Shown here: in pieces, positions 1,375 to 17,368 of the stretch
Position numbering within the stretch: position 1 is the stretch's first letter
How the letters are laid out: each line of letters starts with the position of its first letter
Source: Candidatus Latescibacterota bacterium
GTDB lineage: Bacteria; Latescibacterota; UBA2968
Direction of reading: 5' to 3'
Assembly (NCBI GenBank): GCA_965204745.1
Contig: OZ242010.1
Coordinates: 384,001-448,000 of the forward strand
Length of the DNA: 64,000 bases
Translations under genes and position numbers: made by a program
The notes under the pieces: generated by a model
What the model saw: only the letters and a program-made list of their open reading frames with translations
Databases searched by the model: none
What the model was told of the DNA's origin: nothing

Positions 1375-2241
1375 CTACTGACTCAATGCGTCCTCCAAAT
1401 CCGTTAAAAACTCGTCTCCATTCTGTGGTCGTTTCGCAAAGTCATGATAGAGAGAACGATGTAGCAAATGAAAAAGTTTTTGGGGGCCTGTCCAGTCGTC
1501 TTCTGTCACAATGCCAACAGGTTGGCGGCCGGTCACCACGTACCAAAAAATGGCAGCCATTTGAAACACATCAGATGCCTCATCGATTTCATCATTGCAC
1601 CCCAGCCGTCGATTGTGAGCTTCTGGAGAAAGCCAAAATTTCGGCCCAACATTCTGCGCCTCGGGCGTCAAATCTTCTTCACCCGGATTAACAAAAGTAC
1701 AAAGCCCATAATCGCTTAGGAGCCATCGTTCGCCTGCAACCAAAATATTTTCTGGTTTAATATCCCGATGTACTGCCCGCTCATGCAAGGAAGCCAAAGC
1801 ACCTGCAAGACCGCGAAACTGGCCGGCATATCGCTCGTAACTCAACGCCCCTTCTTCGCGCATCACGTCCTGCAAGTTGCCGTCAGCCAATTCCATTGCG
1901 ACAAAGGGTAGTTGATTGTCTCGGGAAGCCTTGTTATGCCTGACGGTCACGCGCCCAGTTCCATGATATCGCGTCAGGTGATCGCCGTGCATTGCTTTGA
2001 GCAACTTTACCTCTCGCAGAAACCGTTTGGTATTTCTCCATCCGGTATTCATAAGGAATTTAATTGCACATTCTTCACCTGTGTTGCGCTGGCGACCACT
2101 GAATACCGCTGCGTTTCCCCCCCGGCCAATCCAGTTTTCAATCTCGTAGGGATCTCCCTCTTCAGTCCGAATTTCGCTTTTCAGGCTGAAAAAATTACCT
2201 CGACGTAAATGAGCCGGATCAAAATAGAGTTGGCTACTCAT
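1375..2241 (-). CDS. Serine/threonine (Hanks-type) protein kinase, kinase domain only
   Basis: GRGGNAAVF glycine loop, AIKF lysine, HRDIKPENIL catalytic loop, DYG (DFG variant), SPE motif. ATGA overlap with the upstream DUF262 gene. Confidence 0.9.
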   Translation of the reverse strand: MSSQLYFDPAHLRRGNFFSLKSEIRTEEGDPYEIENWIGRGGNAAVFSGRQRNTGEECAIKFLMNTGWRNTKRFLREVKLLKAMHGDHLTRYHGTGRVTVRHNKASRDNQLPFVAMELADGNLQDVMREEGALSYERYAGQFRGLAGALASLHERAVHRDIKPENILVAGERWLLSDYGLCTFVNPGEEDLTPEAQNVGPKFWLSPEAHNRRLGCNDEIDEASDVFQMAAIFWYVVTGRQPVGIVTEDDWTGPQKLFHLLHRSLYHDFAKRPQNGDEFLTDLEDALSQ

Positions 2242-3539
2242 CGACGCTCCAAAATTAGCCAGTCATAACGATTCTCAACGCATGAACGGTGAATCCAATC
2301 TGCATTCGAGATTTGATGCACGGTCACAGACTGGGGCCATGCCAACACGCAGTCGGTAAAATCTCCGGAAATTTCTTTATCGCAAACCGGACATGAAAAC
2401 CAAGGTGCTGGACAATAACCATATTCGTCAGCCCTGTTAAGCCCATCCTGCAATCTATAGACCACTTGAGCGCGTCCTTCGAATATTTTAGGGTCAACGG
2501 GAGCCAGTGATTTACCGACATAAGTTCCTACCAATATCGACTTGAGAAAACGATGGCGCCATCGGCGGCTCGATGCGGAGTTTGCTTGCGATACGCATTT
2601 GATAGCGTACTCACTGCAAATTTCCACATCGGACTCTGGACGGATAGTCTCCTGCAAAATCCCCAAGTCCTCTTGTAAAGGCTTTATGTCCTTGTGGTTC
2701 AAGGTTAGCCCTTGCGATACGAACTCGTCTATCACGAGAAACAAAGTGTAAAAGTCCGCTTTCTGCCGAAACCTGCTTCTCGAAATCTCAATGTCGCCAT
2801 CCGAGAATAGAACCCTCAATTCTTGCAAGACCCCGAGAAATCTCGTCTCAATTTCTTTTTTGTGACCAGCATTCCAGTTTGAATATTTGATATAGAAATC
2901 GTCGAGAGATGTTTTTTTGTTTTGTATGCCATCAATCATAGCTGCCAATAATTCTGATACGTACTCGACATCGCCGTATCTACGTCGCGTAGCTGGCGTG
3001 AAAATACCTATTTTGTCAAAATAGTCGTTCACGGCGAGTTCTTCCGAGACTTTCAGAAAGTCGCCGGGAAAATCGGCTCGTCTCAGTTCTTGTTTTCTGA
3101 GGGGCACAGTGTACTTATTGACGCGAGCATATACTTCACGCACTTCCTCGTCTGTCAGTTTTACTGCCTCATTAAAATCAATTTGGTAGCTCAAAAAACT
3201 GTCCTGTGTGTCGGGGTCTAATTCTGAAAAGGTTTTGCCTTTGTTTTTTCCCGTGAACGGATGATTTAACGCGAAGTTGTCTCGAAGAAAATCGAGAATT
3301 GCTGAAATACGCTGTTGACCGTCAATAACCACGCGATACGTGGAACCGTCACGAACAGTATTCGCCAAAAAAATTTTGGGCATTGGGATACGACGCAGGA
3401 TAGTATCCATCAACATGATGCGGGCAGCGGCAGACCACACTCCTCGCCTTTGAAAATCTGGCCGAAGTTCGAGCCGATTGGCTTCGCTCCAGTCTCGAAT
3501 GTCGGAAATAGGATGCGGGCTGGAATTCCAACGAACCAT
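2238..3539 (-). CDS. DUF262 (ParB-like/GmrSD N-terminal) protein with C-terminal Cys-rich, degenerate HNH-like domain
   Basis: PDFQRRGVW, VIDGQQRI and YARVN motifs of DUF262. C-terminal CPVC...NADWIHRSC. RBS AAGGAGG. Confidence 0.85.
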   Translation of the reverse strand: MVRWNSSPHPISDIRDWSEANRLELRPDFQRRGVWSAAARIMLMDTILRRIPMPKIFLANTVRDGSTYRVVIDGQQRISAILDFLRDNFALNHPFTGKNKGKTFSELDPDTQDSFLSYQIDFNEAVKLTDEEVREVYARVNKYTVPLRKQELRRADFPGDFLKVSEELAVNDYFDKIGIFTPATRRRYGDVEYVSELLAAMIDGIQNKKTSLDDFYIKYSNWNAGHKKEIETRFLGVLQELRVLFSDGDIEISRSRFRQKADFYTLFLVIDEFVSQGLTLNHKDIKPLQEDLGILQETIRPESDVEICSEYAIKCVSQANSASSRRWRHRFLKSILVGTYVGKSLAPVDPKIFEGRAQVVYRLQDGLNRADEYGYCPAPWFSCPVCDKEISGDFTDCVLAWPQSVTVHQISNADWIHRSCVENRYDWLILERR

Positions 3540-3558
3540 ATCTACCTCCTTTAGCGAG

Positions 3559-4014
3559 TTATGTCGCTTTGTGATCCCTCAGAATATCGTCAAGTGCGTC
3601 GGAGAGATTCCAGATTGGATCCAAGTCGCCATCGTGTAGCATATCTACAATATGGGGAACGCCTGCTGCTGCCAAGCCATTGGCAATAGCTATCATGCGG
3701 TGCGGATCAGCTACGATTTCCACATTACCCTCAATCGCGATGGCGACGAGCATGATTGCCTGAATGCGCCAACTGTCGCTGTCGAGAACTGAGCCGTCAT
3801 TAAACTTGCGCGGCTTTCGCTCCGACAGATCAACAGGCTTAAGTTGCATTCGCGCTGCAAGCGACAGCCCAACAAACCAGAGATCAACCTTGCGCGGAAA
3901 CGGACTTTGGTCAATGCTGGCGCGACTCGCTGTCTGGCAATAGCGTTCATAATCCGCATCTTGCTCAATAGGTACAACTAACTCAATGCTATCGAATGGG
4001 TTATGGTCTCGCAC
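3559..4014 (-). CDS. Hypothetical protein, positionally PbeD/DndE-like
   Basis: GTG start with RBS GGAGGT. Directly downstream of the CxC ABC ATPase. The assignment rests on position and size only. Confidence 0.55.
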   Translation of the reverse strand: MRDHNPFDSIELVVPIEQDADYERYCQTASRASIDQSPFPRKVDLWFVGLSLAARMQLKPVDLSERKPRKFNDGSVLDSDSWRIQAIMLVAIAIEGNVEIVADPHRMIAIANGLAAAGVPHIVDMLHDGDLDPIWNLSDALDDILRDHKAT

Positions 4015-4037: not shown

Positions 4038-6176
4038 TCAGTACATTTCCGTTTCTGATTCTAAATCCATCCGTCGCTGACACAGCGTACATTCTCTGTG
4101 ATGATCGCACTCACACCGTAGCACGGTCCGCTCTTTCACCTGTGGGTCATTGATCAGCATTCGGGGATAGTGTGCCGGATTTGTCAGCGTGATTACTCGT
4201 CCCGCTTCGGCATCCAAAATTTCTTCGCAGTCTGCGATTTCAGAGCGCGTGAGAAACAGAATCAGTTGTGAACTTTCTCGGATAGCAGTCTTAAGCACCG
4301 ATCTCTTGACATAGCCACTCATCATTCCAAGCGGCGTATCAATCACATTGGGGGCTTCGACCTCACTCACCTTTGTTAAAGCGAGGATGAAAGCGAGGGT
4401 CAGTGCCCGCCGGGAAGCACCATTTAGATCGCGATCAGGATTCAATGCCCGATTATTTGGGCCATAGACCAAAATATCAAAATCCCTGCTGATCTCCGCC
4501 TTTTGAATAATTGCGTTCTGTTCGGGATCAGCACCGATCATTTTCAAAAAAATGGTGTTCATTAACCTACTGACCTTAGCGAGTTCTTCAGTTGTGATTC
4601 GGGTATAGGAATTTTCCAGAACTTGCTTGACATCCTGCGTTACTTCCAGTTGAGCTAATATACGCTCTCCTCTTTTCTGCCTCCGGAGTAGGTTATTGCG
4701 GGTTGCACTCAGAGAACTTCTCTCTTTTTCTAATGCTTCAAGTTGGGTTTCGTATCGCATTCGGTCGCCGTAGAATCGGTCGCGTTGTTCTCTATAATCT
4801 CGTATGGTAGCCCTAAGACCCTGAATGTTCGTATCCGGTATATCGTCAAGTTTTGCTTCAAGTGCCCTGCGTTTCTTTCCCAAAGAATCAAATCGGGCCT
4901 CTTGCTCGTCGCGGAGTTTGAAGACTTTGGCATATTTGGCAAGCCAAGGTTCATCCCCGGTAACTCGGTCAGGTTGGAGTGGCTGAGATAAAAAATAAAG
5001 TTCGGTGATTATTCTTTGGAGTTCATCTGCCTTTTGACTCTCATCAATCAGGCATTGGATATGATCTCTTCTGCGCTTGCCATCATCGGCGCGTGGATCC
5101 AGCGATTCACCACAAATACAAGTGGCCCTCTGGAGCCGTTCTTCGAGAACGGGAATTGTCTGGTTGGGGATCTTGCCTTGGTCACGCAACTTATTCAACT
5201 CTCCGAGACTTTGTTGCAATACGGGGGTGAGGAGATCACGCGAAAGCGAAAGGTTGCGAAACAAGTTTGAATGCTCTTTACTCGCTTCCTCTTGCTGTCC
5301 TTTGATCCGCTTGCGCTGCAACTCGGTTTGTTTGATCTCTTGCTTGAGTTCTTCCCTGTTGCCTTTGACCAAGGCGTCCTCGATCTGCTTTTGAATCTCG
5401 GCGTGCTTTTCATCGAACGCTGAAAATTGTGCCTTCGCATCCTCTATCTTTTTTTCATAGCTTGCCGAATCTTCATCTATTTGCTCCAACCGAGTTGCGA
5501 TTTGGGTAAGTTCCTCATTGGCTCCAACATTCTTTGCTGCCTTATTGATCTCAGAAGCGGCCTTTTTTACATGCCCGAGAGCATCCTCAATCACACCAAG
5601 TCCCAACAGAGATCGGATCGCTTTCTCAACGCGCTTGCGCTTGGTACTGACGGTCACAGCTACTTCAATGAAACTCAATGCACGGTCTCCATCGGTAAAA
5701 AACACTTCACGAAGTGCGGGGGGCAGTTCGTCCTCAATGAACGATTCTGGCCATTTAATAGACTCATGTCCGGTATCTGTTACTGTAAATAGTTTTACTT
5801 TTGATGGGGTATGCTCCCATTTAGTGCCGTTTAAGGCCTCAAATGCGGATCGTATAATGAGATAGCGTTGCTTGGTTTCACGCGAGCCCCTTGGGCCTCC
5901 TAACTTCGTTATCTCAAATTCGACCTGTACAGAGATCGGAATCCGGTTGCCATCTGATTCATCCCAGTCAATTGGGTGGAGACGATAATCTTGACGTTTG
6001 CCGGGCAAGGCATTGTCACCGTAGAGTGCCCATTGCAAACCATTCAAAATAGTGGTCTTCCCGGTTTCGTTCTCCGCCCGAATGACTGTCAATTTCTTTG
6101 CCGTATCTGTTGAGAAATCGAGCTTCAAATTCCGCAACAGACGAAAATTTTCAAATTCGGCGCGTATGATCTTCAC
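4038..6176 (-). CDS. SMC/DndD-like ABC ATPase with coiled coil and CxC hook (PbeC-like)
   Basis: FENFR N-terminus, Walker A AENETGKT, FFTDGD, long coiled coil with TCICG, LNGASRR signature, VIDTPLG Walker B/D-loop. Confidence 0.85.
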   Translation of the reverse strand: MKIIRAEFENFRLLRNLKLDFSTDTAKKLTVIRAENETGKTTILNGLQWALYGDNALPGKRQDYRLHPIDWDESDGNRIPISVQVEFEITKLGGPRGSRETKQRYLIIRSAFEALNGTKWEHTPSKVKLFTVTDTGHESIKWPESFIEDELPPALREVFFTDGDRALSFIEVAVTVSTKRKRVEKAIRSLLGLGVIEDALGHVKKAASEINKAAKNVGANEELTQIATRLEQIDEDSASYEKKIEDAKAQFSAFDEKHAEIQKQIEDALVKGNREELKQEIKQTELQRKRIKGQQEEASKEHSNLFRNLSLSRDLLTPVLQQSLGELNKLRDQGKIPNQTIPVLEERLQRATCICGESLDPRADDGKRRRDHIQCLIDESQKADELQRIITELYFLSQPLQPDRVTGDEPWLAKYAKVFKLRDEQEARFDSLGKKRRALEAKLDDIPDTNIQGLRATIRDYREQRDRFYGDRMRYETQLEALEKERSSLSATRNNLLRRQKRGERILAQLEVTQDVKQVLENSYTRITTEELAKVSRLMNTIFLKMIGADPEQNAIIQKAEISRDFDILVYGPNNRALNPDRDLNGASRRALTLAFILALTKVSEVEAPNVIDTPLGMMSGYVKRSVLKTAIRESSQLILFLTRSEIADCEEILDAEAGRVITLTNPAHYPRMLINDPQVKERTVLRCECDHHRECTLCQRRMDLESETEMY

Positions 6177-6187
6177 TTGATACCCTC

Positions 6188-6412
6188 CTATTTGGTTTGG
6201 TTTCGCTTTTCTGCGAGAAAATGACCAGCCGCGTTGAACTTGTCATTTATCTTCTTCTGAATATACGTCCCCGCGATGATGTGCTCTCTTTCATATTGAA
6301 TGATGTCGGAGATCACTTCGATCATCTCTTCCTTATATCCGTCGCATCTCTCCTCAATATCTTTACACTCCTCAATAATGATCTTGATGATTTTCCGTTG
6401 GTTGAGCGGCAT
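6188..6412 (-). CDS. Small helical protein, positionally PbeB-like
   Basis: 74 aa with RBS AAGGAG. Lies between the PLD-helicase and the CxC ATPase. Confidence 0.65.
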   Translation of the reverse strand: MPLNQRKIIKIIIEECKDIEERCDGYKEEMIEVISDIIQYEREHIIAGTYIQKKINDKFNAAGHFLAEKRNQTK

Positions 6413-6424: not shown

Positions 6425-8689
6425 TTATGTGAAAACTGCGTTGACGAGTTCATGAATGAGGTTTAAGGGGCCGTCAGCCCGACCAGCATTTCGCGCAAGG
6501 CGGGCAAATTCCCGTATCCGTAAGAGTTCCGAGCGAATCAGAATGCGGCCCTCATCGTCGATATCATCCATATCCGGCGGCAATGCGACAAAGTCGTGAA
6601 TTTCGCTATGCGTCTTGCCAATTTCTCGGCATGTGCGGAGAAGTCGCCCGCGACGTTGCACCCATTGTCGTTCCACTGTGGTGCTTGCGAGGATAAAAGC
6701 CTTTTCAATTTGCGGAATATTCACTCCTTCGTCAAGTACTCGCTTTGCGGTAAGGACGCGGTGTGTGCCTTCCTGAAAGGATTGGATAATGTGCGTTGTC
6801 TCATCGCGGTTCGCTGTCTCTACATGGGTAAGTTGGTGAGAAATTACGCCGTGTTTCTTTAATAGCGCGTTGACAGCGTCGAGTTGTTGCGGTGCCTTAT
6901 CCGAGGCATAAATCAAGGTGTGGCGGAGCGTCCGAAGGTCTTCGCGCATCAAGGCTTTTTCCAAAACGGCAATTTTATTTTTTGCATTTTCCAAGAGTGC
7001 CCGTCGATCCCTCAATAACTTGGTGAGATACTCATCGGGTCCCCCGTCCTCCTGACGCCAAGCATTTGCCTTAATTTTTGCGGTCAAAGCATACCACTCA
7101 TCCATCTCATCCCGCGTGAGTTCTACCGGATGGACATAGTAGTCGTATTCAACGAGACAGCGTCCAATGGCCTCGTTGAGCGTGAACTGAAAAACAACCG
7201 GACCGAAAAACGAAAACAGGGCTTCTGTGCCTTCGACGTCATATTGGCGAATGGGCGTTGCCGAAAGTCCGAGTCTGTAATCAAAGAAAGAGGGTGGATC
7301 GGCAATAAATCCTTCGCTTCCCAAATTGTGTACCTCGTCCGCGATGAGCAAAGTCGCGCAATCAAACTTTTTGACTTCAGTCTTAAACGCGCTATTGCAC
7401 AGCGTGCGGTGAGAAACGACGACAACTTCAACCTCGCTCATTCCATTTCGGAACCGCCGTTTGAGTTTACTGAGTTCCCAGGCCCGTCCGCGTACGCCAT
7501 TCGCCTCGGTCAGATTAATTGCCTTGAGTCCAAAGGGCGCGATCTCATCACACCATTGTTGAATGAGCGGGACATAGGGAGCCGCCACAACAATCAGCAG
7601 TGGTTTGCGTGCTTCATAGAGCCTGTGGGCGCAAATCATGGCTGTGATCGTCTTGCCCGATCCAGTCGCCATTTCCAAGACCCCTTGATGGCCGGCCTCG
7701 CACCAAGCATTTACTGCTTTGCCTTGGTGTTCAAATGGCCCGTCCTCGAATTGGAGATATGAGGGTATCGCAAATGAGCCGTAGGATTTAGAAGATTCCT
7801 CCATGACCGAAAATCTATTTGCTCGGGTATAAAGTGCTCGCAGGTCGGCCTCCGTTGGCGGGATGTTTGAGCGATAGGTTTGCAACAAACGGTCCCGGAT
7901 AGCTCGAGGCATCGCAACGACGATACAATTATCGTCCTTATTTTTCCAAAGCCGCTCGAAATGCTCACAAAACTTTTCTGTGATATAGTGCTGATTGCGA
8001 TCTTCCCACGATTTGGAAATGGAAATTTGCTCAATATTCTTTGCAACACCCGCATAAGTCAGGTTGCTCGATCTGTGTGCTGCAATTACATCATCACTTC
8101 CACGAAAAAGCCAAACCTTTGGATGGAAAAGCGCGTCTTTCATCAGAGCAATTTTGATTTTTACGCGCCCGCTACGCAACAACCACGAAAGACATTTTAG
8201 CGTGTGTTTCTGAATGAGGTCTTCTGTAACAACGATATCTTCTAAAGCGGCACTAGCGATATTTTCAGGAGTGATCACTCCTTTTTCGATAGCGACCTTG
8301 TCTTCGGCCCGGAGAAGGGGACTGATGATCAGGCGAAAACTTTCTTGTGAGCCGTTGACAAAGGTAGCCAACCCTGGAGCTAGCGATGCCAAAACCTCAC
8401 TGGAAAAGAAGCCCACCATACAATCGACTTGGGCAGCCGTTTGAAAACACGGAATAAGCACCTCTTCTGTCACAGGATCATCAGGTAGCATATAGAGCGG
8501 CCTGCTATTGGACACAGCGCGAAGATGCACGCCATCAATCCCTGCCACCTTCAACCCCCTATCAGGTGCCGCTTGGACAACTGATCCGCCAAAGTGCTTG
8601 CGTCCGGGTCCAACTTTTCTCACTTGCAAGGTTCGCAAGTCATACTCTGGCCTCAGTTCATCCTGCAATGTTGTCTCATCCTTCCTCAT
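6425..8689 (-). CDS. PLD(HKD)-nuclease plus SF2 DEAD/DEAH helicase (PbeA-like), with N-terminal BrnA-like antitoxin segment
   Basis: GFFSS, FHPKVWLF...SSNLT (PLD), MATGSGKT, DEVH, SATP, LDEGVNIP, QRRGR. The N-terminus DELRPEYDL resembles BrnA-type antitoxins. Start uncertain. Confidence 0.85.
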   Translation of the reverse strand: MRKDETTLQDELRPEYDLRTLQVRKVGPGRKHFGGSVVQAAPDRGLKVAGIDGVHLRAVSNSRPLYMLPDDPVTEEVLIPCFQTAAQVDCMVGFFSSEVLASLAPGLATFVNGSQESFRLIISPLLRAEDKVAIEKGVITPENIASAALEDIVVTEDLIQKHTLKCLSWLLRSGRVKIKIALMKDALFHPKVWLFRGSDDVIAAHRSSNLTYAGVAKNIEQISISKSWEDRNQHYITEKFCEHFERLWKNKDDNCIVVAMPRAIRDRLLQTYRSNIPPTEADLRALYTRANRFSVMEESSKSYGSFAIPSYLQFEDGPFEHQGKAVNAWCEAGHQGVLEMATGSGKTITAMICAHRLYEARKPLLIVVAAPYVPLIQQWCDEIAPFGLKAINLTEANGVRGRAWELSKLKRRFRNGMSEVEVVVVSHRTLCNSAFKTEVKKFDCATLLIADEVHNLGSEGFIADPPSFFDYRLGLSATPIRQYDVEGTEALFSFFGPVVFQFTLNEAIGRCLVEYDYYVHPVELTRDEMDEWYALTAKIKANAWRQEDGGPDEYLTKLLRDRRALLENAKNKIAVLEKALMREDLRTLRHTLIYASDKAPQQLDAVNALLKKHGVISHQLTHVETANRDETTHIIQSFQEGTHRVLTAKRVLDEGVNIPQIEKAFILASTTVERQWVQRRGRLLRTCREIGKTHSEIHDFVALPPDMDDIDDEGRILIRSELLRIREFARLARNAGRADGPLNLIHELVNAVFT

Positions 8690-8795
8690 AGTCTTGTCTC
8701 TCTCTGCGGGTTGTTTCTCTTGCACTGATCAAACGAATCGCATCCCCTCGTTCGGTGTATGATACGATTAACAAACGACCGCGATTTGATGACGC
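8676..8795 (-). pseudogene. BrnT-family toxin, C-terminal remnant
   Basis: SNRGRLLIVSYTERGDAIRLISARETTRRERQDYEEG matches the RxISAR C-terminal motif of BrnT. The N-terminal half is absent. Its stop overlaps the antitoxin-like start. Confidence 0.7.
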
Positions 8796-8984
8796 TATCG
8801 ACATCATCTGCGGTTTTGGCGACGTACAGCTCTTTGAAAAGCTCAGGCAGTTGTATAAAGTCAAACCTCCTGTGATGTTGAGTATTAAGACGAAATTTCA
8901 CATGCGTTACATTGTTTGCAAAGCAAAGTAACAGATGTATGATGAATCGACAAGCACGCTTGGCAAAACGCAGTGAATTTTAAC

Positions 8985-9125: not shown

Positions 9126-10559
9126 CTAAGATATAGCAGATTTCTGGTCTTTAATCTCCTGCCATATTTCGTCAGCACTTTTGTGAAGTTTTAGCTGAAT
9201 TTCCGGACGTATAAGTAAATTTTTCCAAAGGTCTCGCAGTTCTACAACCTCATTTTCGTCTAATTCATCAAGACCAATTACCCACTGTTGTATCCTTTTA
9301 CCGCAACGGATGACCTGCGTCCTGTCCTCACTTCTCATAGTCCAGCGATTCTTCCAGCGCGTAGTGCGGAGAATTAAAACAAAGTCTCTCCATGGCGGGT
9401 GATGGAGCCGCCATTCCAACTGATTAAGTCCCTTTAATGCCTCTTTTACAGTATCAAGGGTCGGGTTTTCTAGATCGGGAAGACGTTTGTCAAGTAACTT
9501 GCGTACGATTTCTGCTAGCATCTGTTGTCCGATAGGCCAAAATAGGAGATGATCGCTTTCACTTTTATCTTCCTCATCCTCTTTGAGCTCATGAGTTCGC
9601 ATATAGATTGGCTCTTCGGAGAGATCAGGTATCTCATCAATTAAAGCCTTCCAATACATTGTCAATTCGTTAGAAAGTTCATCAATGTATTTTTCAGATG
9701 GACGGAACCGTTTGAACGTTTTCAGATCTGTACCTTCTTCTTCGATTGGGCCCCAACCATTGTTCTCTCTCTGTCGAGAACAGAGCAATTTAACGTTCAT
9801 CTCGTACAAGGTTTCAAGGCTTGTAAAGTATGGATCTCCTGTTTTGAGGTTTTTGCCCTTCTGTGTCTTAATGCGCCTTGATTTACTCTGTATGCCGGCC
9901 GATTTGAAGAAATCGTTGTCAGTAATCAAACGCCGCGTGAGAATGGCAAATGTATCATCCTCATCCATGATAATGTTAGTTGCCTGATCCGTGGGTTTGG
10001 CATAGCGATTGAGATTTGAGAATAGCCGGCGATACTTTGGCATGAAATTTTTATTTGCATCTTCTCGTCGCTCTGGCACAATTACAATGACGGAGAACTC
10101 ATCATTCTCGAAGCCCTCTGGAGCACCATCGGACAACGGATTATTTCGATCAAGAAGGGTCTTGATAGCTGATAGGCGATGTTGACCATCTAAGGCATAG
10201 TATTTCTGCGTTCCATCAAACTTCAATACACCAAACGCTTCATTAAGCCGTCGATCATCACGAAAAATTGCAAATTGAGGATCGTCTGTGATTTCAACGG
10301 GATAAAACATTGGATCTCCCTCAAGAGCCGCGACAACAATAGAGGAAAAGAAGCGATCCTGTTGGCGTTTCAAATACTCCACAATTTCTTTCTTAACTCT
10401 GCCTTCATTCAATGTACGCTGGATTGCCTCATCAAGGGTGCGATCCTCATAGACTTCAGAAGCATACTTCACATTTTCACTTAGCTCACGTGCGCTCATT
10501 TTGACGACATAGTAGTTCCAAGAGCCCATTTGAGAACGTAAAGCAGGATAAATATTCAT
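9126..10559 (-). CDS. DGQHR-domain / DndB-like protein
   Basis: QRTLNEGRVKKEIVEYL, FFSSIVV, ALDGQHRL and FSNLNRYAKP motifs. RBS GGAGG. Confidence 0.9.
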   Translation of the reverse strand: MNIYPALRSQMGSWNYYVVKMSARELSENVKYASEVYEDRTLDEAIQRTLNEGRVKKEIVEYLKRQQDRFFSSIVVAALEGDPMFYPVEITDDPQFAIFRDDRRLNEAFGVLKFDGTQKYYALDGQHRLSAIKTLLDRNNPLSDGAPEGFENDEFSVIVIVPERREDANKNFMPKYRRLFSNLNRYAKPTDQATNIIMDEDDTFAILTRRLITDNDFFKSAGIQSKSRRIKTQKGKNLKTGDPYFTSLETLYEMNVKLLCSRQRENNGWGPIEEEGTDLKTFKRFRPSEKYIDELSNELTMYWKALIDEIPDLSEEPIYMRTHELKEDEEDKSESDHLLFWPIGQQMLAEIVRKLLDKRLPDLENPTLDTVKEALKGLNQLEWRLHHPPWRDFVLILRTTRWKNRWTMRSEDRTQVIRCGKRIQQWVIGLDELDENEVVELRDLWKNLLIRPEIQLKLHKSADEIWQEIKDQKSAIS

Positions 10560-10596: not shown

Positions 10597-11028
10597 CTAA
10601 GCAGGTCGAGGAGTGCCTAGCTTCGCAGGGATAGTTCCAGATATGCGATTTGCCGGTGGGCCAAAACATTCGATTAGACGCGCCTCAAGTTCGTCAATCC
10701 GGTCAGGATTCACTTCAGTGTACCAATATTCAAGATTATCACCAAAGCATTGTTTTGCTTGCTTAACCCCTCGCTCTGGTCTGCGACAGTGCTCAAGAAA
10801 TCGGCGATTAAGAGAGCGAGACTTGCCAACATAAATAATCTCATATAAAGCCTTAAACAAGCTTTGTTTGAAATCAGTTAGTTTAGCACAGATAGCATAT
10901 ACTCCTGACTTCTTGGGAACACTGTCACGACAACTTTGATCCAATTGTGTCTTTGACCAACGTGTTTTACTGACAACTCGCCTCAAGTGATCCCACTCTT
11001 GCTTTTCAAGTGTCCAACCGTGTCGCAT
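10597..11028 (-). CDS. GIY-YIG nuclease family protein
   Basis: VPKKSGVYAI...IIYVGKSRSLNRRFLEH, conserved LEARLI...PPAN. Confidence 0.8.
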   Translation of the reverse strand: MRHGWTLEKQEWDHLRRVVSKTRWSKTQLDQSCRDSVPKKSGVYAICAKLTDFKQSLFKALYEIIYVGKSRSLNRRFLEHCRRPERGVKQAKQCFGDNLEYWYTEVNPDRIDELEARLIECFGPPANRISGTIPAKLGTPRPA

Positions 11029-11115: not shown

Positions 11116-11922
11116 TCACAAATGGCAAATCGCGCACCCTTCGGTCTCTTCGATCATCGGCAAGTCTTTGAGGGGTTGGTTTGCGATGTCGTCTAAGGTC
11201 TTCCCATCCACCCATGTGAATTTCTTCCCGTTCTTCACCTGCTCGTATTCCTTTGCCTTTTCAAACAAATCGGGATGTTCTCGTTTTAATCTTTGCCATT
11301 CCCCAACTTGCTGGTAGAAGCAAAAGTAGCACCCCGACCGCGACCGCCAGTTGTAATACTCGGGCAGTCCAAGCCCCGATTCCTCTAAAATCCGCTTAAT
11401 ATCTGCCAAGCCAAGGCCGTCGTCCTTAAATGGATAAACGGGAATGATGTTGGGCTGTTGAGAAATTGAGGGCGGTTTTTTGGCGATGTACCCATCGCGG
11501 TCTTCGTCGTCGCGGATGCCGATATAGCTATACGCCCGGCTGTCGCCAACATAATCTTCAAACGGTTCAATTTTCAACACGCGCGTACACCACCGCGATC
11601 TCGGGCTGGGCAAATAGCCGCCGTATATCTCGTTCAAATACATATCGAACGGATTGCGCCCGGGCTTTTTCTCCACCCGCAAACCGTCGAGTGCGTTCAG
11701 GCGGCGAACACTAACGCCGAGCAGTGCCTCCAAGCACTCCAGATATTCATACGTTTCATCCAACTCACATCCGGTATCGCAGAACACGTACTCCGCAGGG
11801 ATTTGCGGATAATTCTGCCGCATATAGACAGCGAGAGCCGCGGAGTCTTTGCCCCCCGAAACACTGACGATATGCCGAATGTCATCGGACAGATTGTTCA
11901 ATGCGTCTCGTATGGTTGCCAT
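11116..11922 (-). CDS. sspD: PAPS-reductase family protein, SspD-like (DNA phosphorothioation)
   Basis: SGGKDS PP-loop, FCDTGCEL, RWCTRVLKI, RSRSGCYFCFYQ, C-terminal CAICHL. Fourth gene of a desulfurase-DUF4007-ATPase-PAPS reductase series. Confidence 0.8.
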   Translation of the reverse strand: MATIRDALNNLSDDIRHIVSVSGGKDSAALAVYMRQNYPQIPAEYVFCDTGCELDETYEYLECLEALLGVSVRRLNALDGLRVEKKPGRNPFDMYLNEIYGGYLPSPRSRWCTRVLKIEPFEDYVGDSRAYSYIGIRDDEDRDGYIAKKPPSISQQPNIIPVYPFKDDGLGLADIKRILEESGLGLPEYYNWRSRSGCYFCFYQQVGEWQRLKREHPDLFEKAKEYEQVKNGKKFTWVDGKTLDDIANQPLKDLPMIEETEGCAICHL

Positions 11923-14900
11923 GCGAATCCTTTCCGTTATGGTCTTTGAGAATATGTGCAAATAAGGCCCGCGCTTCTTCCGGGCCGACGATAAGGGCTA
12001 AACGCCCATACAATTCCCGCACGCGCTCCTGCACCAAATTCGCCAATCCGTCTTTGACCGCGCCGTTCGCCTGAAATTCAAACGACAGTGCTCTTTCCTC
12101 GATGCGCCGCACTGCGCTGTGAATTTCGCTGTCAAAAATCGCGCTGTTGCTGTCATCCCACCGGTTGAGCGTCTTGCGAAACAGCAAGCCGGACAATGAG
12201 TCGATGAGTTTGGCATCGGACGGATACGGCATACGCAGGCGAGAGAGAAGCCCTTTTGCCGTGCTGTCAGTCAGCGCGTTGGATAGCTCATCGGGAAAAC
12301 ACAATGCCCACTGGCGAGCGACCGCGTGTACGCATCCATTTTGGGTTTCTCGGTTCGCAGGCAGTGCCCTACGCAAAGAAGCAATCGCTTCTTTCCGATA
12401 ACCGTCAATGACCGCAGAGAGTTCACATTTACAGGTTTCGAGGGATTCCAACAAGGAGTGTTGCTCGTCAATTGCGTGTTTTAATGCAGTTGGAATGCGC
12501 TCAAATAGCAGGTGTACCGGATTGGACTGCTGGCGAATTGCCTTTTGAAAGCGACGGGTCAATGGGGTTAAATGCACGGTTGACAGCGCGCCGGTCGGAA
12601 GCGTCGTCTTCCAGCTTTCAAGCGCGTCATAGCAGGCCCGAATGAGATCATTACCGGTTGTTGAACTTGCGCTCGCAACAAAGAGATCATAAACCGCGTT
12701 GAGATACGCTCGTTTTGGCTGATCGATGTCTAAGACGACAAATTCAAACCTTTCCGGTTCGCGGCATAACTGTTCGATGACAGAGGGCAAAATATCGGAT
12801 ACGTAGGTCCCTTCACGGTGGAGAGAATACGCACTCGGAAAGGCTTTGAGACCTGCGGCAAAGAAAATGGGCAGCACCCCGGCGCGAACCCCGAAAGGCG
12901 GATCCATCAGTTCATCAAAGAATCCTCGAATATCCTTTGGGGCTTTTGCGGGGGTTGTCAAAAATGCGCGAACTTTGTCCCAAACCTCTTTTATCCCCTC
13001 GTCCTCCACTTCATCGGGCATCGCATAACGCCAGCGTCCGTCGTCTTTTTTGTATAACCCGGTATGCAACAGCACTGTGCGGAACATGGACGAATCCGGA
13101 AAATTGCCTTCGAGGCCCAAATTCTCCTGACCTGATCGCTCCAATACACCGAGCAGGAGTTTCTTGCGCGCATTGACCACAATGGGGGACGGTTTGTGCC
13201 GCACGATCATCTCATTGTTGATGATGGGCGTTTGGTGGAAAATTTTTGACATGAGATTGGACAGTTCATCCCGCAAGTCATACGCGCTTTTGACGGGCAA
13301 TGCGTTCCCCCTGTAAAAATAGCGCGGCCCATCGCTGCTCGGCTGGATCAACCGGTCGAGGAGCGTTTGAAGATGGGCATGGGCATCGTCGGTCATAAGT
13401 TGAATTTCGGACGACACATGCGGGTCTGAGTCTATCAGCTTATCATCGCCTTGCATCTGCATCAAACACCACACTTCCAAAGCCATCTCAAATAGGGGGA
13501 TGGGCGCGCGGGGTATCGCAAGAACAACCCTTTCGTTGCGTAGGCGTTTTGCCGCGCGCTCTGCTTTTCGCAATTCCTCTGCTGTCTCGGCAATGACATA
13601 CACACAAATGCCATCGCAACCAACGGGCATCTTACGCAAAGAAATCTCGGCCTCCAAGTATTCGGATAATTGTTTCAAACAGCAATACGCGCCTTGCGAG
13701 AAACGCCTGATGCAAAACTCGCTGTTATACCTCACGGGGCGCCATACGGGCGGGGGGGCTTCTTCGGTCAAAAACGCAATGAACTCAAAAGTAGCCCGCT
13801 GTCGCAATTTCTCGTCTTCAAGCCTGCCCCGAAGATCGGCATCTGTCCCATGCCAAACGGAAACCTCATCGCTGTGTTTTCTGTGTAACAGGTGTTTCCC
13901 GTCTATGAGTTGGTCAATAACCGTTTCTGCCCGCTGTGATCCCGTGGTGCCATAGCCGCACAGGGCAAAGTGCAACAAAGCGCGAGTCGCGTGTGACCGC
14001 TCGCCATGGACACCAAAACCCAAGAGGCTTGCTGTTTTCAGTGTTGTTGCCGCCAAGTCATCCGCGTCGTCCAACTTTGAGAGGGCATTTTGCGTTTCGA
14101 GCCACTGCCTGTAGGTGCCTCCGACGGCTGTATCTGCACGCATATCCGATGAAAAGTATTCGTAGAGATGGTCGGGCCTAATGAGATTTTGCAAATCCAT
14201 AGCATTGAGAAAACTGAACAGGGTCCTCTCGTTTTGCGCCACGCGCCCGGACATGCGGGGCAGCAAATATAGGGTCGTCGGCTCTAGGGGATATGCCCGG
14301 CGCAAAAGCGACTGAAGTTCCGACGGGTCAAAATCGGCAAACAGGCCGAGTTGTTTGCACGCTTCTGCCACCAAGGTTGCTCGTTTGGCTGTCAAGGCAC
14401 AAGGGCTATTCTGTCTGTCGGCAAACATGCCGAGTTGGGGAGAATCATTATTCGCCCCTACTTTTGCACAAGGGCTATTCTGGTTGAAAACCACTCCTGA
14501 TATGAGGCGGTAGATCTCCTTGCTGTCGTCTATGTACTGAATCGTCTGAAAACGACCCTCAATTTTTCGCCACTCTGCGCGCACTGTTTGTGGGGAGTTG
14601 CTCGCGTACTGAAACAATTCTTGGTGGAGCAACAGGCCGAGCGTCATCGGAATGCCATGAGACCGATTGACAAACTCCGCCAACAATTGGATTTCACTCA
14701 AAGCGACGGAACGCCCCTCAGAAATCAACGACTCGATGTGGCGTCCGAACTCATCCCACAAAATCGAGACCCGATCACAGCCGGTCGCACGCGCTTTGTC
14801 CCGAACCACGCCGAGCAATTCAATGGCCTGTTCAATCGTCTCAGAGGGCATTGACGCAATGGCACGCGCTTGCCGGCCCAACTTCATACGCCGCATCCCC

Positions 14901-15307
14901 TCGAGCGCGGCGTCTTTTAGGCTTTCGCTCAAATTTCGACAATGGTCCTGCAAGACCAGCACGATCCCTTTGTCTTTGCCCTTGCGGCGTTCTTGGGAAA
15001 ATTTGCCCAAACCCGGACTGACGACGTGAAGCCTGTCTTCAATCGCCGTGAGCGTATCATCGGCCTCGGCGCGGTTCTCGATCAAGTGCAACAAATAGGT
15101 CGCTGTAATTGATTTGCCCGTGCCATAAGGCGCGACCACAAAAAACGCCCTGTCTCGTTCAAGACCGAGCAGGGATTTGATGAGCGGGACACTTTTGGCC
15201 GTGGGTTGGTAATGCGCGATCCGATGCGGATATGCTGCGTCGTACGATATGTTGATGGAACGAAGAAATGCTTCGGTGGCGAACGCGACTGGTTTTTCAT
15301 GCGGCAT
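11882..15307 (-). CDS. sspC: Large P-loop ATPase, SspC-like
   Basis: FLRSINI N-terminus, APYGTGKS Walker A, WDEFGR Walker B, EWRKIEGRF, YPLEP, QNERTLFSFL. 1141 aa, overlapping both neighbours. Confidence 0.8.
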   Translation of the reverse strand: MPHEKPVAFATEAFLRSINISYDAAYPHRIAHYQPTAKSVPLIKSLLGLERDRAFFVVAPYGTGKSITATYLLHLIENRAEADDTLTAIEDRLHVVSPGLGKFSQERRKGKDKGIVLVLQDHCRNLSESLKDAALEGMRRMKLGRQARAIASMPSETIEQAIELLGVVRDKARATGCDRVSILWDEFGRHIESLISEGRSVALSEIQLLAEFVNRSHGIPMTLGLLLHQELFQYASNSPQTVRAEWRKIEGRFQTIQYIDDSKEIYRLISGVVFNQNSPCAKVGANNDSPQLGMFADRQNSPCALTAKRATLVAEACKQLGLFADFDPSELQSLLRRAYPLEPTTLYLLPRMSGRVAQNERTLFSFLNAMDLQNLIRPDHLYEYFSSDMRADTAVGGTYRQWLETQNALSKLDDADDLAATTLKTASLLGFGVHGERSHATRALLHFALCGYGTTGSQRAETVIDQLIDGKHLLHRKHSDEVSVWHGTDADLRGRLEDEKLRQRATFEFIAFLTEEAPPPVWRPVRYNSEFCIRRFSQGAYCCLKQLSEYLEAEISLRKMPVGCDGICVYVIAETAEELRKAERAAKRLRNERVVLAIPRAPIPLFEMALEVWCLMQMQGDDKLIDSDPHVSSEIQLMTDDAHAHLQTLLDRLIQPSSDGPRYFYRGNALPVKSAYDLRDELSNLMSKIFHQTPIINNEMIVRHKPSPIVVNARKKLLLGVLERSGQENLGLEGNFPDSSMFRTVLLHTGLYKKDDGRWRYAMPDEVEDEGIKEVWDKVRAFLTTPAKAPKDIRGFFDELMDPPFGVRAGVLPIFFAAGLKAFPSAYSLHREGTYVSDILPSVIEQLCREPERFEFVVLDIDQPKRAYLNAVYDLFVASASSTTGNDLIRACYDALESWKTTLPTGALSTVHLTPLTRRFQKAIRQQSNPVHLLFERIPTALKHAIDEQHSLLESLETCKCELSAVIDGYRKEAIASLRRALPANRETQNGCVHAVARQWALCFPDELSNALTDSTAKGLLSRLRMPYPSDAKLIDSLSGLLFRKTLNRWDDSNSAIFDSEIHSAVRRIEERALSFEFQANGAVKDGLANLVQERVRELYGRLALIVGPEEARALFAHILKDHNGKDSHGNHTRRIEQSVR

Positions 15308-16187
15308 GGCGATTTCTCCGTTGGATGGCTCGGTAGTGATTTTTCAGCCAAGCGATGGGTTGCATTTTTGGAATGCGTATCCTCCGATCTCCGGCGAGAT
15401 CGACCACGCGGATATCGGCGTTTGGATCCGTTTCTTCAGCATTGAGCGCGAGCGCGAGTAGCGCATCAACGGTCAGGACAAATGCTTTGCCGGGGCCACC
15501 GGGGATCGTTGTCGCCTCTCTCGCGGATATATCGACTGTATCCCGTCCTTCCCTGGCTTCCTCCAATGCGCTGGCGAGGGCATATCCGAGTAAATGCGGG
15601 GGAATCGCCTTTTCGCCTCGATGCACTTGGTAATCTCCCGATGCGTGAAAATGGCTCAACAAACCGAGTTCGACAAATGGACATTCGAGCGCGTCTTCCG
15701 GGTCGTCGCAGGTCGTTGGAATGGATCGGGCATAACTCTGCAAAAGACAAGCCACATCTCGCTCGAGCGTCCTCGGCCTAGGCGGGCGATATTGTTGCAG
15801 ATAGCGCGACAACTTGTCGATGCACACGGCCCGCTTAAATCGGGCTTGATTAAATTCGTTGAAAAACCATTGCCATGTAAAGGCGCGATTTTCGGGATGC
15901 ACCAGGTTGACGTGCAAAGCCCACCATGTTCCGATTTCGACAAAATAGGGATCGCGCTCGTAAATCAGCCGGGCGAGGTCGGTTGCATCCAACGCAGACC
16001 GCATTCGCACGGCCAGCCCCGTGACCTCCAACCAGTGGCGGATAGAGCGGGACATATTTTTGCCAACGCCGAGCCGATCCGCAACGTATTTGTCAAACAT
16101 CTGATCGGGGTCTTCGATGAGCAGCTTAAGCCCTTTGTGAAGCCAGCCTTCCCGAATCGCAAATGTTTCGTGGCCGCTAAATTTCAT
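15297..16187 (-). CDS. sspB: DUF4007 family protein, SspB-like
   Basis: FSGHETFAIREGWLHKG, LGVGKNMSRSIRHWL, DPYF, CPFVELGLL. RBS GGGAG before ATG at 16187. Confidence 0.85.
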   Translation of the reverse strand: MKFSGHETFAIREGWLHKGLKLLIEDPDQMFDKYVADRLGVGKNMSRSIRHWLEVTGLAVRMRSALDATDLARLIYERDPYFVEIGTWWALHVNLVHPENRAFTWQWFFNEFNQARFKRAVCIDKLSRYLQQYRPPRPRTLERDVACLLQSYARSIPTTCDDPEDALECPFVELGLLSHFHASGDYQVHRGEKAIPPHLLGYALASALEEAREGRDTVDISAREATTIPGGPGKAFVLTVDALLALALNAEETDPNADIRVVDLAGDRRIRIPKMQPIAWLKNHYRAIQRRNRHAA

Positions 16188-16195
16188 GATCTCCC

Positions 16196-17368
16196 CTATT
16201 CGTCCGAGAATCGTTTGAACCTGAAAAACCGACGCAACTGGTCGCACAATCGCGCGAGATGTGCAACCGCCTCGTCAACCTCTTCCATTGTGTTGAACTC
16301 CGAAAAGCTAAACCGGATACTCGAGTATGCCTCGGGTTCGGAAAGGCCCATTGCACGCAACACGTACGAGGGTTCGGGCCGCTGATTGGTGCATGCAGAA
16401 CTCTGTGAACACCGGACCCCTTCTCGATCCAACCGCGCCACGAGTGCCTGACCATCCACACCGCGAAACAGCAAATTGGTCGTATTGCCAACCCGCGCAC
16501 TGGGATCGCCGTTAATCGCCACATCGGGCACGCGCTCCATGACGGACTGCTCAAAACGGTCCCGAAGTGAAGCCGTAAATTCTCGCACGGCCGCGAACCG
16601 ATCCAATCGCACTTTGGCTGCGGTTCCCATGCCAATAATGCCTGGTACATTTTCTGTTCCCGGGCGCAACCCACCTTCTTGAGTCCCGCCCCAGAGCAAC
16701 GGGAATAACGCTTTGGTCGCTTTTACATACATTGCCCCAATCCCCTGTGGGCCGTGGAATTTATGCGCGGTAAAAGTCAAAAAATCAATGGGCAGTTCCG
16801 CTATTGAGATGGGCAACTTGCCAACGGCCTGCGCCGCATCCGTGTGAAATAAGACCCCTCGGGATCGACAAAGCCGCGCAATTTGTTCAATGGGCGAAAT
16901 CGCGCCCGTCTCATTATTGACCCATTGCACGGAGACCAAATCGGTATTTGGCGAGATGGCGTTGTCCAGCATTGCCCAATCCAACTGCCCACAGCGATCC
17001 ACGGGTATAGCTACGACCTCAACGCCTGTTGTGCCGAGATAGTCACACATTTTCACAATAGACGAGTGTTCCACAGTCGTCGTCACAATGCGAACCGGTT
17101 GTTGTGCGCGTTGCACAACCGAATTAAAGACCGTGTTGTTGGCCTCGGTGCCACTTCCCGTAAAGACGAGTTGATCGGCCGCGGCACCGATCAACTTTGC
17201 CACGGCCTCACGCGCTACAACCATGGCTTCGCGCACGCGGTCGCCTGCTGAATGCGCGCTCGACGGATTGCCAAAATCCGCGCCCAAAACGCGCATCATC
17301 GCCTCGCGGACTTCGGGCAATGGTTGCGTCGTGGCGTTGTTGTCCAAATATATTTCGCGTCTCATCAT
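16196..17368 (-). CDS. sspA: Cysteine desulfurase (IscS/DndA/SspA-type)
   Basis: IYLDNNATT, GNPSS, HTDAAQAVGK, AHKFHGP (PLP lysine), SQSSAC catalytic Cys. First gene of the ssp series. Confidence 0.85.
   Translation of the reverse strand: MMRREIYLDNNATTQPLPEVREAMMRVLGADFGNPSSAHSAGDRVREAMVVAREAVAKLIGAAADQLVFTGSGTEANNTVFNSVVQRAQQPVRIVTTTVEHSSIVKMCDYLGTTGVEVVAIPVDRCGQLDWAMLDNAISPNTDLVSVQWVNNETGAISPIEQIARLCRSRGVLFHTDAAQAVGKLPISIAELPIDFLTFTAHKFHGPQGIGAMYVKATKALFPLLWGGTQEGGLRPGTENVPGIIGMGTAAKVRLDRFAAVREFTASLRDRFEQSVMERVPDVAINGDPSARVGNTTNLLFRGVDGQALVARLDREGVRCSQSSACTNQRPEPSYVLRAMGLSEPEAYSSIRFSFSEFNTMEEVDEAVAHLARLCDQLRRFFRFKRFSDE

Follow-up and report, generated by a model that had tools for sequence, protein, structure and literature searches.

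We analysed a 64-kb window covering positions 384001-448000 of the single-contig 5.48-Mb genome (completeness 97.65%) of a Candidatus Latescibacterota bacterium (assembly GCA_965204745.1, contig OZ242010.1). In this window lies a cluster of genes for a predicted Ssp-type DNA phosphorothioate (PT) writer followed by a Pbe-type effector module. Positions are numbered from the first letter of the window. The ORF listing gives twelve open reading frames (ORFs) in the cluster, all on the minus strand; in the order in which they are read, with lengths in amino acids (aa) and matches to the PADLOC, Pfam and NCBIfam models, these are:

16196..17368, minus strand: sspA, cysteine desulfurase, 390 aa (PADLOC SspA 4e-130, DndA 5e-129; Pfam Aminotran_5 6e-76)
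15297..16247, minus strand: sspB, DUF4007 DNA-recognition subunit, 316 aa (PADLOC SspB 1e-110; Pfam DUF4007 2e-62, full profile)
11882..15307, minus strand: sspC, large ATPase, 1141 aa (PADLOC SspC 1e-162, profile positions 4-1050 of 1054)
11116..11961, minus strand: sspD, sulfurtransferase of the phosphoadenosine phosphosulfate (PAPS) reductase type, 281 aa (PADLOC SspD 4e-93; Pfam PAPS_reduct 2e-10)
10597..11028, minus strand: small GIY-YIG nuclease, 143 aa (Pfam GIY_YIG_2 27.0 bits, cut-off 22.4; GIY-YIG 24.5 bits, cut-off 22.6)
9126..10559, minus strand: DGQHR or DndB-like protein of the ParB superfamily, 477 aa (Pfam DndB 9e-37; TIGR03187 107.9 bits, cut-off 58.85)
6425..8725, minus strand: pbeA, HKD nuclease of the phospholipase D (PLD) type fused to a superfamily 2 (SF2) helicase, 766 aa (PADLOC PbeA 2e-195)
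6188..6412, minus strand: small protein at the pbeB position, 74 aa, between pbeA and pbeC with gaps of 12 and 11 nt
4038..6176, minus strand: pbeC, CxC-type ATP-binding cassette (ABC) ATPase with coiled coil, 712 aa (PADLOC PbeC 2e-49, full length; DndD 2e-34)
3559..4014, minus strand: protein at the pbeD position with a predicted DndE-like fold, 151 aa (open frame extends to 4110, 183 aa)
2238..3539, minus strand: nuclease-less DUF262 protein (ParB-like NTPase), NsnA-like, 433 aa (Pfam GmrSD_N 1e-19; PADLOC NsnA 1e-39)
1375..2241, minus strand: stand-alone Ser/Thr protein kinase, 288 aa (Pfam Pkinase 9e-28; PADLOC PD-T4-6 2e-38, mad6 2e-38)

Family scans bore out the domain labels of a preliminary description, which had read these genes as one hybrid PT defence system, for every gene except the two small proteins of the pbe block. 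The genes had also been called co-oriented and tightly packed or overlapping. The shared orientation stands, but the packing is broken by a 400-nt gap between the DGQHR gene and the pbeA ORF, which contains a 14-bp terminator-like hairpin, and by an 87-nt gap after sspD. The catalytic motifs of the desulfurase, the PP-loop enzyme, both ATPases, the helicase, the HKD domain and the kinase are intact.

The first four genes bring together the four families of an SspABCD module in one cluster. SspA has the lysine expected to bind pyridoxal phosphate within T-A-H-K at residue 200 and S-S-A-C at 323, SspC has a Walker A motif (G-T-G-K-S) at 62 and W-D-E-F at 183, and SspD has the PP-loop S-G-G-K-D-S at 35. 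SspC has no Pfam or NCBIfam match, and its second-best kind in PADLOC is BrxC (3e-65). A reading of sspC and sspD as part of a type 4 bacteriophage exclusion (BREX) system was not adopted, since the BrxC and BrxP matches are far weaker than those to Ssp and the sole PglZ of the genome lies about 3 Mb from the locus, outside the window, from which the preliminary description had already reported pglZ to be missing. Characterised Ssp members write single-strand PT (C-ps-C-A), and the SspABCD proteins encoded here would likewise place sulfur marks on the host's own DNA.

The helicase/ATPase block fits the Pbe profiles, as the preliminary description had supposed. PbeA combines an HKD/PLD nuclease with an SF2 helicase (Pfam ResIII, Helicase_C and PLDc_2) and carries H-P-K at 201, G-S-G-K-T at 355, D-E-V-H at 463 and Q-R-R-G-R at 690; against TIGR04095, the 'DNA phosphorothioation system restriction enzyme', it scores 368.7 bits, under the cut-off of 600. 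PbeC is a DndD-like ABC ATPase with a CxC zinc hook, C-I-C, in mid-protein at residue 353, an N-terminal G-K-T and a C-terminal I-D-T-P-L-G. Past the ABC ATPase core, its C-terminus (4038-4120) holds an extra Cys/His cluster (C-E-C, H-H, C-x-x-C). The protein at the pbeD position most likely starts at 4014, as judged from 25 homologues (26 were aligned). Its AlphaFold2 model has a predicted local distance difference test score (pLDDT) of 88 and a predicted template modelling score (pTM) of 0.85, and in an exhaustive, wide structural search with VIA-align the top matches were DndE structures, namely 7x4e_A (Z 9.0, root-mean-square deviation 3.4, 111/114 residues) and 5wtu_A (Z 7.3). The third match was the relaxosome chain 9f0x_E (Z 6.8) and the following ones had Z ≤3.9. 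Foldseek with the same model found no match in the PDB at E ≤0.001, and a comparison of the family with the PDB by sequence gave nothing relevant (best E 0.94). The family itself is large, with 1548 proteins at E ≤0.001 among 8000 scored, one of which carries Pfam PF27807. Thus the 151-aa protein resembles PbeD, a DndE cognate of about 150 aa, by its fold and not by sequence models, and since its predicted fold is DndE-like, the modelled structure indicates that the four-gene Pbe module is complete here.

Genome-wide profile searches found neither DndC (TIGR03183) nor DndE (PF08870), which extends to the genome the preliminary statement that a dndC/D/E writer is missing from the window. SspABCD is the only PT writer found in the genome. 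Searches of the whole genome for SspF and dnd_assoc_2 gave no match, the control in each case also matching nowhere, and the SspE model gave weak matches only (≤48 bits), at other GmrSD-type genes. A restriction partner of the SspE or SspFGH kind, as in the described Ssp systems, was therefore not found in this genome, with the SspF control as just stated. The characterised coupling of Pbe to a DndCDEA writer is not seen either; the writer that adjoins Pbe here is SspABCD.

We then looked at whether the two modules are neighbours elsewhere, using a linkage search anchored on PbeA alone with one genome per species. This search yielded 28 loci (58-85% identity); below, labels of the form Lnnn denote loci or stretches and those of the form Gnnn denote genomes. 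PbeC comes after PbeA in all 28 loci and homologues of the 74-aa protein occupy the same position in all of them (38-80% identity), both by tblastn. The 151-aa protein follows in 27, and the contig of the remaining locus ends inside pbeC. The linkage to ssp genes on which the preliminary description depended recurs in these loci, 21 of the 28 having sspB, sspC and sspD all within 10 kb in the gene calls, and also on plasmids. In 15 of the 28, sspD lies directly upstream of pbeA on the same strand with a gap of 1-242 nt. Elsewhere a single gene is wedged between the two, encoding BrnT (L009), a DUF262-HNH fusion (L034) or SspE (8e-284, L022); SspE consists of a DUF262 NTPase and an HNH nuclease. 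The ssp genes are downstream of pbe or convergent to it in L028, L030, L035 and L036.

The linkage spans considerable divergence of the writer. SspC of the Latescibacterota loci is 71-73% identical to that of the window, and SspC of the Poribacteria loci is just 22-25% identical to it, yet reaches 1126 bits with the SspC model of PADLOC; across both SspC lineages PbeA stays 66-73% identical. A conjugative plasmid of Rhizobium indigoferae (NZ_CP140639.1) carries pbeB-C-D-A, with a PbeA of 31% identity, convergent with sspA-B-C-D, and a plasmid of Sphingomonadaceae OTU29MARTA1 (CP099618.1) carries a bare eight-gene ssp-pbe operon with overlapping frames. To judge from sequence, then, the Ssp-Pbe core is conserved, holding over two SspC lineages, a second Pbe clade (the division into two clades rests on identities) and two plasmids of cultured strains. 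By contrast, Pbe adjoins Dnd genes on plasmids of Ruegeria and Chlorohelix. In the plasmid-borne SspABCD sets nearest to that of the window, the ssp genes are followed by two unnamed genes and a giant gene with an FtsK/SpoIIIE domain, which is the SspFGH pattern. Because SspFGH-like genes, SspE or Pbe can stand behind sspD, the position next to sspD would be an effector slot, and Pbe one of its occupants.

Some of these loci carry further genes. Directly upstream of sspB, 11 Poribacteria-type loci (L010, L013, L014, L017, L018, L024-L027, L033 and L034; at about 3-4 kb of each locus sequence) encode an HNH_2 endonuclease of about 300 aa, and in 8 of these 11 pbeD is followed by a protein of 96-98 aa, with or without a 455-aa protein, and a DndB-like protein of about 360 aa. 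In L011 (5056-9891), L020 (15073-21699) and L036 (15243-17237), SspD-like genes lie beside GHKL/HATPase proteins, one of them MzaB-like, which replace or accompany sspB/sspC. The combination of an SspD-like protein with GHKL/HATPase proteins may be another writer or effector variant.

Within the window, the pbe genes and the two genes behind them are set off from the rest by a pair of direct repeats:

8980..9072, minus strand: direct repeat copy 1, about 90 nt, just after the DGQHR gene, opening with the 14-bp terminator-like hairpin
1250..1342, minus strand: direct repeat copy 2, about 90 nt, just after the kinase gene, with a 10-bp terminator-like hairpin

The copies are 84-88% identical, lie 7,729 nt apart and flank pbeABCD-DUF262-kinase; they are the only two in the 5.48-Mb genome. 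The repeat has an RNA fold z of -4.9, Rfam gave no match in positions 1-19000 of the window at E ≤0.1, and of all terminator-like hairpins found on the coding strand, the one just after the DGQHR gene and the one just after the kinase gene are the strongest. In G082, a sister genome of the same genus, repeat copies (L065 11489-11573 and 18519-18592) stand behind a different DndB-like gene and behind the kinase gene. This repeat may be a cassette boundary or a recombination site. When contigs of four public metagenome runs were mapped to the island, contigs in three of the four runs joined 1347 to 9086 with 12-13 other letters between, the 7.7-kb block being absent; such contigs show that a form exists and not how frequent it is. 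Three weak contig joints (8790 to 11118, side 28; 10946 to 17531; 8667 to 18635) were left out as evidence.

These boundaries make it likely that the genes are transcribed as [sspABCD-GIY-DGQHR], [pbeABCD-DUF262-kinase] and, beyond the kinase gene, [HEC-01AB]. The locus is a mosaic of separable cassettes and not one twelve-gene system. The view of the preliminary description on this point is rejected because conservation of the core does not extend to the accessory genes; in addition, a hairpin lies between the units and the block is missing in related strains. The extra genes make better sense as two separable pairs of accessory genes, GIY-YIG with DGQHR and DUF262 with the kinase.

The first pair stands directly behind sspD. 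The 143-aa protein belongs to the GIY-YIG nuclease superfamily, with G-V-Y at 42, Y-V-G at 66 and R and E columns conserved in three aligned homologues. It aligns with proteins of 173 aa (L028) and 161 aa (L021) that precede DGQHR genes, the columns in common being G-I/V-Y, Y-I/V-G, R, E and P-P. In the DGQHR protein the D-G-Q-H-R motif is at 124 and is invariant in five aligned relatives; with 56.7 bits against TIGR03233 DndB (cut-off 328) the protein falls outside the DndB equivalog, and against DGQHR_dnd_1 it scores 27.6 bits (cut-off 450). The pair, like the GIY-YIG protein by itself, has no direct-similarity match in the 28 PbeA-anchored loci. Divergent copies of the pair occur in two of them, L028 and L021, one behind sspD and the other behind pbeD. 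A search with the DGQHR protein over 168 genomes of the phylum found matches in 22, and we examined 20 kb around 12 of the matches. A GIY-like ORF lies directly upstream of the DGQHR gene in 7 of these 12 stretches, ssp genes are present in 8 (sspC or sspD in 6 of the 8) and pbe genes in 6. On a Ruegeria plasmid with Dnd and Pbe genes, a DGQHR protein comes after PbeD; a 180-aa protein encoded before 'DGQHR protein 1' in Ruegeria was tried as a GIY-YIG nuclease and rejected, as it fails to align. To judge from these occurrences, the GIY-YIG+DGQHR pair is a recurrent companion of PT writers and not a fixed part of Pbe. One of the 12 stretches, L082 (G133:C1:6405000-6424999), reads sspABCD-pbeB-pbeC-pbeD-GIY-DGQHR and has no pbeA; its GIY-YIG nuclease might act as a stand-in for PbeA in a helicase-less Pbe. 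GIY-YIG (URI) nucleases have been noted at the borders of Dnd systems as possible suicide back-ups (PMC10853773).

The position of this pair would also fit an arrangement in which the Ssp mark has GIY-YIG+DGQHR, as a split counterpart of SspE, for its cognate reader, and pbe-DUF262-kinase is a later and functionally separate insertion. The pair lies directly behind sspD and ahead of the terminator-like hairpin, the pbe block is flanked by direct repeats and missing in some strains, the pair recurs in L021 and L028, and four of the eight DGQHR stretches with ssp genes within 10 kb are without Pbe. However, the pair is found in just 2 of the 28 PbeA loci and sspBCD in 21, so Pbe is linked to Ssp without it, and in L082 the pair stands behind pbeBCD rather than sspD. 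Moreover, a single mark could have both modules as its readers, much as SspE and SspFGH have additive effects (PMC8092258), and thus a reader role for the pair would not exclude such a role for Pbe. The arrangement as a whole, with the pair as cognate reader and pbe as a separate insertion, seems to us quite improbable.

The second pair stands behind pbeD. Between pbeD and the DUF262 gene lie 19 nt, and the end of the DUF262 gene shares 4 nt with the beginning of the kinase gene. The DUF262 protein has D-G-Q-Q-R at 73 and no match to the SspE model at E ≤0.01; the kinase has A-I-K at 59-61, H-R-D-I-K at 158, D-Y-G at 177 and S-P-E at 205. In none of the 28 PbeA loci do the two genes have close homologues, and they cannot be counted as parts of one conserved system, as had first been proposed. 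Among the 168 genomes of the phylum, 32 have some DUF262 match and four a close one. The first of the four, G060, is from a different family and has sspC..sspD-pbeA-B-C-D-DUF262-kinase, with the DUF262 protein 72% and the kinase 82% identical to those of the window, PbeD just 50% and SspD 47%. In G122 the pair is intact and sits where a contig begins; PbeC was not detected in this genome, and PbeA was found only as a broken fragment on another contig. G082 retains the kinase (91%) and HEC-01, with a transposase inside its DUF262 gene and mere stubs of sspA and pbeA; G129 has only a fragment. The neighbourhood of sspBCD, pbeAC, DUF262 and kinase that the preliminary description had put forward is thus recurrent in its ssp-pbe part, with DUF262 and the kinase behind pbeD found elsewhere in G060 alone. 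From these occurrences, DUF262+kinase appears to be a mobile unit of sensor and effector with a tendency to settle behind pbeD. In L012 (15134-17024), an NsnA-like DUF262 gene and then a SIR2 (ThsA-like) gene lie directly behind pbeD.

The ends of the island are marked by the following features:

17514..18627, plus strand: IS701-family element at the upstream edge (NCBIfam transpos_IS701_2 3e-115)
2..1174, minus strand: HEC-01A ATPase, 403 aa, extending past the window edge (PADLOC HEC-01A 1e-138; Pfam AAA_21)

The IS701 element has 29-nt inverted repeats at 17514-17542 and 18599-18627, and one contig from metagenome run X3, joining 17514 to 18611, represents an empty site. The element is polymorphic, and its depth of 100-1000 times that of the surroundings indicates that it is multicopy in the community. 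A gene for a class A penicillin-binding protein is also on the upstream side. At the other end, a 200-nt gap with a hairpin separates the kinase gene from HEC-01A, downstream of which come HEC-01B/DUF4276 (PADLOC 2e-66, Pfam DUF4276; L037 11373-13174) and then a CbiX gene. With both an HEC-01A ATPase and an HEC-01B DUF4276 protein at or beyond the left window edge, HEC-01AB is a separate neighbouring candidate defence system that marks this end of the island. G+C is 0.43-0.55 within the island, with the minimum (0.43) over GIY-YIG/DGQHR, and 0.55-0.65 in the flanks. In G082 the same chromosomal site (L065, G082:C1:5118000-5137999) has a STAND-like NTPase (signal transduction ATPase with numerous domains), an HNH gene, a cyclic-oligonucleotide-based antiphage signalling system (CBASS; DncV-like and SAVED-HNH), a DndB-like gene and Cas6, with sspA and pbeA present only as stubs and the DUF262 gene interrupted by the transposase. 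This content shows rapid turnover at a defence hotspot.

We consider it probable that the locus is a horizontally acquired defence island of separable cassettes, comprising an Ssp writer, a PT-dependent Pbe effector and two accessory pairs. SspABCD would mark self DNA, and PbeABCD, filling the slot behind sspD that is taken by SspE or SspFGH elsewhere, would act as the PT-dependent effector. PbeC and the DndE-fold PbeD would scan DNA, as has been proposed for CxC-DndE pairs (PMC10853773), and PbeA would serve as motor and HKD nuclease on DNA without the Ssp mark, thereby blocking phage replication. The small protein at the pbeB position would regulate the module. The GIY-YIG+DGQHR pair would be co-transcribed with ssp and the DUF262+kinase pair with pbe; each would join a ParB-like NTPase to an effector and, by analogy with SspE, could provide an extra or back-up sensor-effector unit. 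Because Pbe is conserved while Ssp diverges or is replaced by Dnd, what Pbe recognises is more likely the mark on the DNA than the proteins of the writer. The initial idea that an Ssp mark is read by a Pbe-type motor/nuclease is retained, on the Pbe profiles, the linkage and the searches that found no Dnd writer, and only the inclusion of the extra genes in one system has been dropped.

Several observations weigh against this interpretation. The 74-aa protein fits PbeB in position and size but has no match to the PADLOC PbeB, Pfam or NCBIfam models, small proteins of the PbeB type being described as a rapidly evolving family (PMC10853773). The 151-aa protein has no sequence match to PADLOC PbeD, Pfam DndE or NCBIfam models, and comparing its profile by hhalign with that of NCBI 'PT-associated protein 4' gave a weak match (E 0.006, probability 6%). 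Among the 28 loci, 4 have an SspD-like gene alone and 3 have no ssp gene, two of these three having no upstream room. Most of the loci come from sponge-type metagenome-assembled genomes (Poribacteria and Latescibacterota); they are kin from similar habitats and possibly carry one mobile element, so the counts overstate the number of independent events. A Leuconostoc plasmid has Pbe without a writer nearby, and in 4 of the 12 DGQHR stretches of 20 kb the converse is seen, Ssp and the pair being present without any Pbe gene. The metagenome contigs without the block keep the DGQHR end, so near relatives can have Ssp without Pbe. The strong terminator-like hairpin, with a promoter-like site after it, separates ssp-GIY-DGQHR from pbe (promoters overall number 19 against 17.7 in shuffles, which is not above chance). 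Stand-alone CxC systems have been reported as well (PMC10853773).

Part of this evidence would also fit another account in which Ssp and Pbe are mere neighbours in a hotspot, Pbe being a stand-alone, PT-independent module, for example a suicide nuclease released by phage cues, while the Ssp mark is read by something else or not at all. The STAND NTPase, CBASS, DndB-like gene and Cas6 at the same site in G082, with remnants of sspA and pbeA, are what such an account would lead one to expect, as are the hairpin between the units, the presence or absence of the Pbe block as one unit, and the lone Pbe of Leuconostoc; CxC systems have, moreover, been argued to be able to act independently, perhaps by suicide (PMC10853773). 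However, chance proximity is hard to square with adjacency in 21 of the 28 loci, 15 of them with sspD directly upstream, across two SspC lineages and the second Pbe clade, or with a plasmid operon of eight genes with overlapping frames, and the one tested member of Pbe needs PT (PMC6459918). We regard a purely spatial association as unlikely.

That no neighbour reads the mark, the ssp genes forming an orphan epigenetic or redox system or being inactive, has a precedent in the sspBCD sets at large, most of which are without a known partner and for which an orphan function is listed as a possibility (PMC8092258). Here, the four ssp genes are intact with their catalytic motifs, they sit among defence-type genes only, and their linkage to Pbe is conserved, and an orphan or inactive Ssp appears highly improbable. 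A more elaborate version of the preferred reading has one Ssp writer serving three layered mark readers, GIY-YIG+DGQHR, DUF262+kinase and Pbe, two of them undescribed. The first would be a split SspE analogue with GIY-YIG in place of HNH, the DUF262-kinase pair would answer the sensed mark with phosphorylation of proteins (growth arrest) instead of cleavage of DNA, and Pbe would be a writer-independent reader swapped between Dnd and Ssp as a repeat-bounded cassette. This version is tentative, and on balance we doubt it.

What is new here is the pairing of an Ssp writer with a Pbe effector, both of known kinds, together with two undescribed accessory pairs, whose functions are predicted. If the island works as we propose, conserved Ssp-Pbe sets would explain part of the 'orphan' Ssp systems, and one effector family would serve two marks that are related in chemistry and differ in placement, the double-strand PT of Dnd and the single-strand PT of Ssp, which would narrow the possible ways in which Pbe reads DNA. 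Since plasmids of two cultured strains, both non-pathogenic, carry compact Ssp-Pbe versions, the pairing is directly testable. The accessory pairs also suggest that ParB-like NTPase sensors with interchangeable outputs (HNH, GIY-YIG, SIR2 or kinase) occur around PT writers.

In the searchable literature on Pbe and Ssp, with supplements and Krishnan 2020 outside its scope, the Ssp-Pbe pairing is unnamed. It is not mentioned in the available text of PMC10853773, PMC8092258, PMC6459918, PMC12707154 or bioRxiv 10.1101/2024.06.03.597175; in the main text of PMC10853773 'ssp' occurs 14 times and is never tied to CxC systems, and a BREX-4 preprint that surveys sspD neighbourhoods has no occurrence of 'pbe'. 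A full-text literature search on DGQHR brought up, by titles and abstracts, no work on the GIY-YIG+DGQHR pair. The pbeAC search by Xiong 2019 was limited to dndCD surroundings (PMC6459918). Among 2,678 sspBCD sets, 2,211 were without sspE/sspFGH, and the authors expected more partners; the share of sspBCD clusters without a known restriction partner is put at about 84% (PMC8092258).

Several known systems resemble parts of the island. In Menshen (NsnABC; PMC12065111), NsnA (DUF262 with ParBDB), whose model the nuclease-less ParB-like sensor candidate of the window matches, has the NsnB ATPase (with DUF3696) and the NsnC effector as neighbours, whereas here a kinase gene comes next and NsnC is missing; the available text of the Menshen paper does not contain the word 'kinase'. 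Membership in Menshen was rejected because the nearby ATPase is HEC-01A (1e-138; NsnB just 1e-16) with its own HEC-01B. The kinase domain matches the PD-T4-6 and mad6 models and, like PD-T4-6, mad6 of the methylation-associated defence system (MADS) and PglW of BREX/Pgl, adjoins a DNA-modification system. Unlike those kinases, that of the window has 288 aa, has no extra domain and is translationally coupled to a DUF262 gene; against NCBIfam MAD6 it scores 76.6 bits (cut-off 460). The DGQHR protein shares the DGQHR-motif ParB-superfamily domain and the PT-gene neighbourhood of DndB, a regulator of dnd operons, and of NCBIfam 'DNA phosphorothioation-associated DGQHR protein 1' but, unlike DndB, is paired with a small GIY-YIG nuclease.

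The CxC ABC ATPase-DndE systems of Rakesh et al. (PMC10853773) have the same core as the Pbe module, namely a CxC ATPase, a DndE cognate (as they call PbeD), an HKD-SF2 helicase and a small protein. There they are paired with Dnd genes or cytosine methylases or stand without a partner, and in the window the core is paired with Ssp. The closest archetype of the effector is DndCDEA-PbeABCD of Haloterrigena/Natrinema jeotgali A29 (PMC6459918), in which the same four genes stand in the same order beside a PT writer, PbeB having 66 aa (74 here) and PbeD 152 aa (151 here). This one characterised Pbe is PT-dependent in its block of virus replication. Its writer is Dnd (DndC/D/E, double-strand PT), whereas here it is SspABCD in a genome without detected DndC or DndE; PbeA of the window shares about 31% identity with the Dnd-linked examples that were examined on plasmids, and the proteins at the PbeB and PbeD positions differ from the archetype in not matching its PADLOC models. 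The writer, in turn, has its counterparts in SspABCD-SspE, reportedly described by Xiong in 2020, and SspABCD-SspFGH (PMC8092258), which agree with it in writer genes and gene order and have the effector directly behind sspD. Unlike these systems, the locus described here has GIY-YIG+DGQHR and then PbeABCD in the slot after sspD.

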